This document shows positions 48,039 through 49,757 of a stretch of DNA of 64,000 bases, in pieces. The notes below the pieces were generated by a model. The model saw only the letters and a program-made list of their open reading frames with translations. It was not told the origin of the DNA and did not search any database. Each line of letters starts with the position of its first letter. Positions within the stretch are counted from its first letter, which is position 1. Source of the DNA: Naegleria gruberi (lineage: Eukaryota); assembly GCA_000004985.1 (NCBI GenBank), contig GG738881.1. One strand, given 5' to 3'. The translations under genes and the position numbers were made by a program.

Positions 48039-49757
48039 TTATCCTCAGCAACCAGTGTCGGTTTCTACTCCCTTCTCAAGCTTGACAATAGTTTCAGCAC
48101 AAGTAGGGTGAATACCGACAGTGTCATCAAAGTCTTCCTTAGTGGCATTGCATCTCATGGCAACAGCGAAACCTTGAGTAACTTCACCAGCGTTTGGTCC
48201 AACATAGTGGAATCCCAATACTCTTTCATTATCCAACTCGTTACAAATTAATTTTACAAATGCTTGACATTCTCTTGCAGGTGGTTCATATTCAAGAACA
48301 TAGTATGATTTCTTATAAATGGTGAGATTTTCAGCACCATATCTCTTGACGGCTTCTTCTTCAGTCAATCCACAACTTCCATATTCAACAGGAGTGAAAA
48401 CAGTGGTTGGAACCTTATCATAGTCCATCATTTTCTTACTTGAATTATATAAACGAGCTGCCAAGAGTTTACCAGCCTTAATGGCAACTGGAGTAAGTTC
48501 AAGACCTCCAACAATAACGTCACCAATAGCATAAATATGAGGAACAGAGGATTGTTCATACTTGTTGACGAAAATCTTTCCAACCTTGTCAGTCTTGACA
48601 CCAATATTTTCCAAATTGAGAGCTTGAGTCAAGGCATAACGACCAGTTGCAAACAAGACTGTATCAAATTCCTCAGTCTTCTTTTCCTTTGTTTCAACAT
48701 TTTCATATTCAACACTCAATTTACCACTTTCAAGTTTGTTAACAGAGAGAGGAACACAAGGTTGATAGAATTTAACACCTTCATCGCTCATAACATTAAC
48801 AATCTTGTCAGCACATTCTCTATCGAAACCTCTCAATGGAACAGATCTAACCATGATGGTAGTATCATTACCAATTCCATGTAAAAATCCACCACATTCC
48901 AAAGCAACATAGGAAGCACCAACAACAAGTGACTTGCCTGGTTCCTTTTCCATACTGAAAATATCATCACTGGAAATGCAATATTCCTTAGCACCTGGAA
49001 TATCAGGATAGAGTGGTCGACCACCAACAGCAATGGCAAATCTACGAGCAGTGAAACGTTTTCCTTCCTCTTGACCATCCTTTTTACCTTCAACAGTGTG
49101 TGCATCAATAAAGGAGGCATACAAATTGTGATAGGTAATTCCCTTCTTTCTCAAATCAGTTCTATACTTGAAATTGAGTCCGTGAATGTGGTCTTGAACC
49201 ATTTCTACGAGCTTACCCCATTGATGATGTGGTTTTCTTTCAGTTCCGTGACCAACACTATTTGTCCAACCAAAAGCAGTGCCATCTTGAGATCTATCAC
49301 CAATAAGAGCAGCTGTGTGCATTAACTTTTTAGGAATGCAACCAACTAGAATTTAATATGAATAGATTATAATATAGATTATATAAATTATTATTATTAT
49401 TAATTTAATATCATTATTAGATGTTTTAGTTGTTATTATTAATATTATTGTTTAATGATGAATATTATTGTTTGATGGTAAAATTGAAAGTAAACGAAAA
49501 TAATATAATATTGAACAATAATCTACACGACTATTATCAGATTATAAAAACATACCATTTACACAAGTACCACCCAAACCCCATGTTGTTCCTTGAGGAG
49601 AAGGTTTAATGTAATCGAAAACAGCAACCTTAGCACCAAGAGCATTTGCTTCCTTGGCCAAGGCAATACCACCCGAACCACCACCAATCACGATTAAATC
49701 ATAATCGTATCCGTGATCGGTTTCTGGTTCCTGTGTATCTATCACAGGTTCCGACAT
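48039..49757 (-). CDS. TXNRD: High-molecular-weight thioredoxin reductase, selenoprotein (in-frame TGA = Sec in a C-terminal GCUG motif); two exons: about 49556-49757 and 48039-49346
   Basis: Exon 1 (ORF 49542..49757) carries MSEP...[13 protein letters not shown]...GGTCVN. An intron of about 209 nt follows. Exon 2 continues [17 protein letters not shown]... through the NADPH and interface domains and ends ...TDTGC-TGA-GGA-TAA. The ORF caller stops at the TGA (48045-47), and the next two codons are Gly and TAA. This is the Sec-containing C-terminus of animal-type TrxR. Confidence 0.75.

Follow-up and report, generated by a model that had tools for sequence, protein, structure and literature searches.

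A described counterpart of the gene considered here among free-living amoebae is the large thioredoxin reductase (TrxR) of Acanthamoeba castellanii, AcTrxR-L. Its annotation is cut at a UGA codon that is followed by GGT-UAA, and a SECIS (selenocysteine insertion sequence) element has been published for its 3' untranslated region (UTR) at 282-355 (Leitsch 2021, PMC8038987; PMC11459619). According to Leitsch et al. 2021 (PMC8038987), a UGA/SECIS-type TrxR had been described from Naegleria by da Silva et al. 2013, and SPS2 genes in N. gruberi have been listed by Mariotti et al. 2015 (PMC4561486). The present analysis concerns the TrxR gene of Naegleria gruberi, which lies on the minus strand of a 64,000 nucleotide stretch of contig GG738881.1 (assembly GCA_000004985.1), referred to below as the window, and the two RNA structures predicted in its 3' UTR, a SECIS element and a long hairpin that begins at the stop codon. 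An original prediction, made from the sequence of the window without database searches, had proposed that the gene encodes a selenocysteine (Sec)-containing enzyme and that the organism has the machinery to insert Sec, the latter being backed by the published work cited above. The selenoprotein nature of the N. gruberi TrxR is already known; the coordinates of its SECIS element, the GUGA sequence of the SECIS core, and the hairpin are refinements.

The N. gruberi gene resembles that of A. castellanii in encoding a large Sec-type TrxR that is annotated only to the UGA, in having a SECIS element in its 3' UTR, and in the presence of a hairpin past the stop codon. The two differ in that Acanthamoeba belongs to the Amoebozoa and Naegleria to the Discoba, in the type-1 SECIS with an AUGA core of Acanthamoeba, and in their proteins, which are 54% identical by BLASTP. 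Mammalian TXNRD1 (rat 1h6v, human 2zz0/2j3n) is likewise similar in its domain order, its CVNVGC and HPxxxE motifs, its Gly-Cys-Sec-Gly end, and the type-2 SECIS in its 3' UTR. The mammalian and Naegleria proteins are about 55% identical. Naegleria has GUGA instead of AUGA in the SECIS core, a 3' UTR of only about 240 nt, and a much longer post-stop hairpin.

The gene consists of two exons (Table 1), and the span that had been proposed, 48039-49757, is precisely that from ATG to TAA. Joining the exons restores GGTCVNVGCIPKK, the CVNVGC redox centre, in an in-frame open reading frame (ORF) of 502 codons, with the splice junction reading GGTCVN-V/GCIPKK. The redox centre had been expected to lie across an intron of 209 nt; it does lie across an intron, but one of 210 nt. 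A like split is seen in the N. fowleri loci, where there is an 87-aa ORF and a 425-aa ORF. At the other end of the gene the frame reads TDTGC (TGC at 48050-48048), TGA, GGA, TAA, that is Gly-Cys-UGA-Gly-stop, and the layout of the gene on the minus strand agrees with the Gly-Cys-Sec-Gly ending that had been read from it.

With its last two residues set aside, the protein shows 100% identity to an NCBI entry, "thioredoxin reductase [Naegleria gruberi]" (P0001), which has 500 aa and ends at Cys, having been cut off at the UGA. The next-best BLASTP matches are from N. lovaniensis (83% identity), Willaertia magna (78%), and Acrasis kona (58%), followed at about 50-60% by amoebozoan and metazoan sequences and those of many uncultured eukaryotes. 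A terminal GC is found in 113 of the 120 best homologues, indicating that these gene calls also stopped at the Sec codon. The model for the thioredoxin-glutathione reductase (TGR)/TrxR subfamily, TIGR01438, matches with 638.1 bits against a cut-off of 475.85 and over its entire length (profile positions 1-485 of 485), while the glutathione reductase models score under their own cut-offs. The domains present (PF07992, PF00070, and PF02852) are those of the class-I pyridine nucleotide-disulfide oxidoreductases, for FAD, NADPH, and dimerisation. Rat TrxR1, 1h6v, is the nearest solved structure (E 3e-168, residues 13-502 aligned), and the alignment takes in the GIHPxCAE motif and extends to the terminal GCCG of this Sec-to-Cys variant. 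The CVNVGC columns are invariant in a 24-sequence alignment. Judged by these sequence comparisons, the Naegleria protein is a full-length member of the high molecular mass (high-Mr) TrxR/TGR subfamily; the TIGR01438 score and the alignment to the end of 1h6v bear out its description as an animal-type enzyme.

The ending TGC-TGA-GGN-TAA is common to N. gruberi, N. lovaniensis (locus L001), N. fowleri (L091, with L092 and L093 identical), W. magna (L002), and A. kona (L003), which come from independent assemblies. Conservation across five species excludes a base-call error at the TGA, named at the outset as something that could overturn the case, as well as a chance occurrence of GGA-TAA. The Sec-type ending is also found, with variants, in 17 metagenomic TrxR loci. 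Among these variants are a Cys-Sec-Ser-stop ending in L018 (around 1461) and a Gly-Cys-Sec-Ala-stop ending in L020 (match end about 1497).

It could be argued that the TGA is a real stop codon or a miscalled TGC or TGT, so that the enzyme ends at Cys or is of the Cys type and the GGA-TAA is coincidental. The public annotation does end at the TGA, and no SECIS was matched by Rfam. This explanation is nonetheless very improbable, given the identical ending in four other independently assembled heterolobosean genomes and the covarying SECIS downstream. In addition, true Cys-type TrxRs end in CCG or CCS with no in-frame TGA, and a truncated TrxR is reportedly inactive (PMC3628699). The N. gruberi TrxR is therefore very probably a selenoprotein, its UGA predicted to be decoded as Sec by way of a type-2 SECIS in the 3' UTR.

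A SECIS element had been expected somewhere within 47750-48038, and a type-2 element with compensatory pairs in three Naegleria species was located there at 47896-47829. It is approximately 160 nt 3' of the UGA, with its core beginning 152 nt past the TAA and upstream of an AATAAA. The minimum free energy (MFE) fold shows helix I, an internal loop in which GUGA faces UGAU, helix II, the unpaired AAA, and the mini-stem, and the 12 positions of helix II agree with the 9-13 bp or so typical of SECIS elements. The core, UGAC/UGAU, agrees with the published kink-turn consensus, in which UGAN is 5' and KGAW is 3' (PMC3753652). An AATAAA is close behind the SECIS in N. lovaniensis and N. fowleri too, and from the sequence it is likely that the TrxR transcript ends after the one at 47802-47797. 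Just past this likely poly(A) site, in the intergenic region, is a direct repeat of about 55 nt (47578-47634 and 47672-47727), its copies 94 nt apart and 78-100% identical over blocks.

A SECIS descriptor made for this analysis has a single match within the TrxR 3' UTR. In the whole window, over both strands (128 kb), it has 11 matches compared with 3.6 +/- 1.6 in Markov-1 simulations, so that a chance match in a given 300-nt stretch would be expected at a rate of approximately 1-3%. The strict form of the descriptor missed many real elements, owing to bulges and truncated UTRs, and a flexible version recovered more of these, but not all. Five of the ten other matches to the loose descriptor are inside long stop-free stretches. 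The remaining five are at 36716-36762 and 60501-60544 on the plus strand and at 60180-60128, 54518-54465, and 2010-1945 on the minus strand; most of these are probably AT-rich false positives.

Both N. lovaniensis and N. fowleri have this SECIS in the corresponding position. Across the three closely related Naegleria sequences that make up this comparison, 98.4% of the pair cells are standard pairs, a share that falls to 43-51% on sliding the partners. In three pairs both sides have changed in a compensatory manner, and four others vary on one side, all sequences remaining paired there. This conservation should be seen as stronger evidence for a SECIS than either the rarity of descriptor matches or the stability of the fold. 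SECIS-like elements were also identified past the UGA in Acrasis (+87), in a relative from a JGI metatranscriptome (+64), in Balamuthia (+233), and in Acanthamoeba (+296), the last core position falling inside the published 282-355; metagenomic TrxRs have them as well.

Three observations weigh against the assignment of this element as a SECIS. The base before the core UGA is a G (47887) instead of the usual A, the element alone is thermodynamically unremarkable (z -1.2), and Rfam returned no SECIS match either in a scan of the 3' UTR or with the 96-nt element alone. With regard to the last of these, Rfam found no SECIS in seven other Sec-TrxR transcripts used as controls; it is therefore insensitive here and its negative result says little. 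N. lovaniensis, N. fowleri, Willaertia, and Acrasis all have AUGA at the orthologous core site, which makes the G of N. gruberi look like a single recent substitution. GUGA_AA cores are documented as a functional variant in the green algae Chlamydomonas and Ostreococcus and in the sponge Amphimedon (PMC3473315). As in N. gruberi, these have a G before the core UGA and retain the AA motif, although most SECIS elements in those organisms are of the GUGA type whereas the relatives of N. gruberi have AUGA. A GUGA core like that of N. gruberi is also seen in an AT-rich metagenomic Sec-TrxR locus (L013), in a SECIS at +176 past the stop with a 16-bp helix I.

When the elements of N. gruberi and N. 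lovaniensis were made into a covariance model and the window and 29 loci were searched with it, only those two were matched. Such a model is too sequence-specific to be fit for testing distant species. MAFFT, applied to eight distant SECIS elements, left their 3' cores out of register.

A different location for the SECIS had been suggested tentatively, the AUGA-containing region at 47950-47990, and an AUGA is indeed present there, at 47971-47968. That it is the SECIS is hardly credible. This AUGA belongs to the 3' arm of a helix with 12 perfect bp, ACUAUUAUUCCA with UGGAAUGAUAGU, within a separate 109-nt hairpin (48041-47933), and since it is fully Watson-Crick paired the sheared G.A kink-turn cannot form at this site, which rules it out as a SECIS core. 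Neither descriptor scan found a matching GA, a helix II, or an AA arrangement at 47950-47990. Further, neither N. lovaniensis nor N. fowleri shares the sequence of the inner hairpin, but both share the element at 47896-47829.

The hairpin that contains this AUGA is a prominent structure, with a predicted folding energy of -45.1 kcal/mol (z -9.2; 0 of 200 shuffles as stable). Its outer stem starts at the second base past the TAA, which can itself pair with a UUA, placing the base of the hairpin 4-7 nt past the UGA. Where other long ORFs of the window end (42 stop codons), no hairpin reaches its score (maximum 18 versus 26), which rejects the idea that post-stop hairpins are a general feature of N. 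gruberi. The sequence of the hairpin is single copy in the window, with only short AT-rich chance matches elsewhere, and the possibility that it is a repeated mobile element was likewise rejected.

A hairpin is found at the same post-stop position in every orthologue examined, with differing stem sequences: GACCACACG(A) in Naegleria, CCACACUGUG in Willaertia, ACCUGUCGG in Acrasis, GCCCGUUGUAGG in the JGI relative, GCUGCUGUUGCUU in Balamuthia, and GCUGCUGC in Acanthamoeba. A metagenome scan contributed 17 more Sec-type TrxR loci, giving a total of 24 that were tested. For each, an uninterrupted helix with its 5' strand at +1 to +4 past the stop was compared with all other anchor positions of that locus. 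Such a helix is significant at p<0.05 in 14 of the 24 loci and at p<0.01 in 11, with a Fisher combined value of 6e-21 for loci that are not all independent. In most of the 24 the hairpin starts at +1 or +2, and the MFE folds, as read here, mostly place it at or beside the stop codon, with a stem base that is often UAA-GCC...GGC-UU. Between species the loop varies in size, from 4 nt to over 100 nt. In a turtle Sec-TrxR the hairpin begins at +4 (p 0.02). No post-stop hairpin was found in two Cys-type TrxRs, one from Diaphorina ending SCCS (p 0.996) and one metagenomic ending SCCG (p 0.78).

Structures of this sort have been described. The selenocysteine codon redefinition element (SRE) of SELENON, the proximal stem-loops (PSL) of SELENOS, SELENOK, SELENOO, and TR1, and the Euplotes TR1 structure are all stem-loops a few nucleotides past the Sec UGA (PMC6844570, PMC3628699, PMC8704476, PMC3737529), as is the hairpin in Naegleria. 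For proteins with a C-terminal Sec this places the stem-loop directly past the stop codon. Six of eight human C-terminal-Sec selenoproteins, including TR1, are predicted to have one there (Cockman et al. 2019, PMC6844570), and a stable structure past the Sec UGA is known in Euplotes TR1 (PMC3737529). Both the SelS (SELENOS) proximal stem-loop and the SELENON SRE affect recoding (PMC3628699, PMC8704476). The role of the TR1 and SelK post-stop loops has been stated to be unknown (PMC6844570), and deletion of the equivalent structures from human TR1 and Euplotes TR1 left Sec insertion unchanged in assays in HEK293 (PMC6844570, PMC3737529). An effect on recoding has thus been demonstrated only for SELENON and SELENOS, whereas the Naegleria hairpin is a predicted structure.

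By analogy with the SRE and PSL systems, the Naegleria hairpin would most likely be an accessory recoding element. That it favours Sec insertion over termination is possible, at rather less than an even chance, this estimate being held down by the published deletions without effect, which weigh against such a role. An explanation unrelated to Sec decoding, for which the chances are not far short of even, would make of the hairpin a neutral inverted repeat, the remnant of a transposon, an element for stability or 3' processing, or a rigid spacer serving only to fix how far the SECIS is from the UGA. The deletions in human and Euplotes TR1, with no measured effect on UGA coding, are consistent with this, as are the widely varying size of the loop and the small number of Cys-type controls (n=2). 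It does not sit easily with the fixed position of the hairpin despite unrelated stem sequences, with its single copy in the window, with its absence from the 42 other N. gruberi stops and from both Cys-type enzymes, or with the altered recoding caused by the SelS and SELENON structures.

The groups in which the hairpin was seen are the Heterolobosea, the Amoebozoa, a vertebrate, and many uncultured eukaryotes; published reports add ciliates and humans. It could be speculated, although this is doubtful, that the post-stop hairpin of Sec-type TrxR mRNAs is an ancient recoding element across eukaryotes that is positioned at the mRNA entrance with the UGA in the A site and there favours Sec insertion over termination. 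Were this so, the negative results in HEK293 would be due to heterologous context or saturating conditions. The type of structure is itself already known, and the conservation of its position from Discoba through Amoebozoa to a vertebrate and uncultured eukaryotes is an only mildly new point; no description of this wide spread of the TrxR hairpin was found in the searchable literature.

Taken together with what is known from other eukaryotes, a mechanism can be proposed. The type-2 SECIS would form a kink-turn core from the 5' GUGA and the 3' UGAU, upon which SBP2 and eEFSec would, by analogy, deliver Sec-tRNA(Sec) to UGA501. The enzyme would then end with a Cys-Sec redox pair to which the partner subunit's CVNVGC/FAD centre passes electrons. 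With the UGA in the A site, the spacer of 4-7 nt would bring the base of the hairpin to the mRNA entrance of the ribosome, as for known recoding stimulators. In the SELENON SRE the spacer is 6 nt. The hairpin might slow the ribosome or disfavour release-factor action, and this influence on decoding is suggested more weakly than delivery by SBP2 and eEFSec.

Table 1. Features of the N. gruberi TrxR locus, in positions of the 64,000-nt window
Feature	Position	Strand	Remarks
TrxR gene	ATG 49757 to TAA 48041-48039	minus	high-Mr thioredoxin reductase, Naegleria gruberi; two exons, 502 codons
Exon 1	49757-49556	minus	202 nt; ATG to first base of second Val codon of CVNVGC; FAD-binding GGGSGG motif
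Intron	49555-49346	minus	210 nt; GT..AG; phase 1; 15% GC
Exon 2	49345-48039	minus	final exon, reaches TAA
Exon 2, coding part to Cys500	49345-48048	minus	NADPH and dimerisation domains; GIHPTCAE His/Glu motif; PF07992, PF00070, PF02852
TGA, Sec codon 501	48047-48045	minus	penultimate residue; conserved in four other heteroloboseans
Gly502 and true stop	48044-48039	minus	GGA 48044-48042, TAA 48041-48039
PSL	48041-47933	minus	109 nt, three-tier; begins at stop codon
PSL outer stem	48037-48028 with 47946-47937; UAA 48041-48039 with UUA 47935-47933	minus	
PSL middle stem	48022-48012 with 47957-47947	minus	
PSL inner stem	48011-48000 with 47975-47964	minus	3' arm holds AUGA 47971
Type-2 SECIS	47896-47829	minus	MFE fold, descriptor scans, N. 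lovaniensis match, covariation
SECIS helix I	47896-47890 with 47835-47829	minus	7 bp
SECIS 5' core GUGA, then C	47887-47884	minus	UGAC = 47886-47883
SECIS helix II	47882-47871 with 47852-47841	minus	12 positions, 10 paired
SECIS unpaired AAA	47870-47868	minus	
SECIS mini-stem UUGG/CCAA	47866-47863 with 47857-47854	minus	makes the element type 2
SECIS 3' core UGAU	47840-47837	minus	
AATAAA, likely poly(A) signal	47802-47797	minus	26 nt 3' of SECIS

Some other features of the window were noted. Over its first 350 positions the unit CCAAAC, equivalent to (CCCAAA)n / (TTTGGG)n, is repeated 58.5 times almost perfectly, and this array looks like a telomeric repeat at the end of a chromosome or scaffold, the C-rich strand being 5' at the left as expected. 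Arrays of 72- and 144-nt repeats with 61-86% identity are present at 60734-62010, and short matches at like spacing were also seen; the arrays probably code for protein repeats of 24 residues, leucine-rich repeats for example. A gene for tRNA-Ile (anticodon AAT) is on the minus strand at 56644-56736 and, being 93 nt long, it probably contains an intron. No tRNA-Sec was found in the 64,000-nt window.

The association of the hairpin with Sec-type TrxR in distant groups, and not with the two Cys-type enzymes, provides a comparative argument for selection on the PSL of mammalian TR1, and many natural variants of the hairpin are now on hand for functional tests. The main value of the analysis lies in the correction of annotation. 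The public TrxR entries of N. gruberi, N. lovaniensis, N. fowleri, W. magna, and A. kona all end at the Sec UGA and thus are without the catalytic Sec-Gly, and the SECIS coordinates permit a proper model of the TrxR gene. In pathogenic amoebae, among them the relative N. fowleri, the enzyme is a candidate target for drugs of the auranofin type (PMC11459619).

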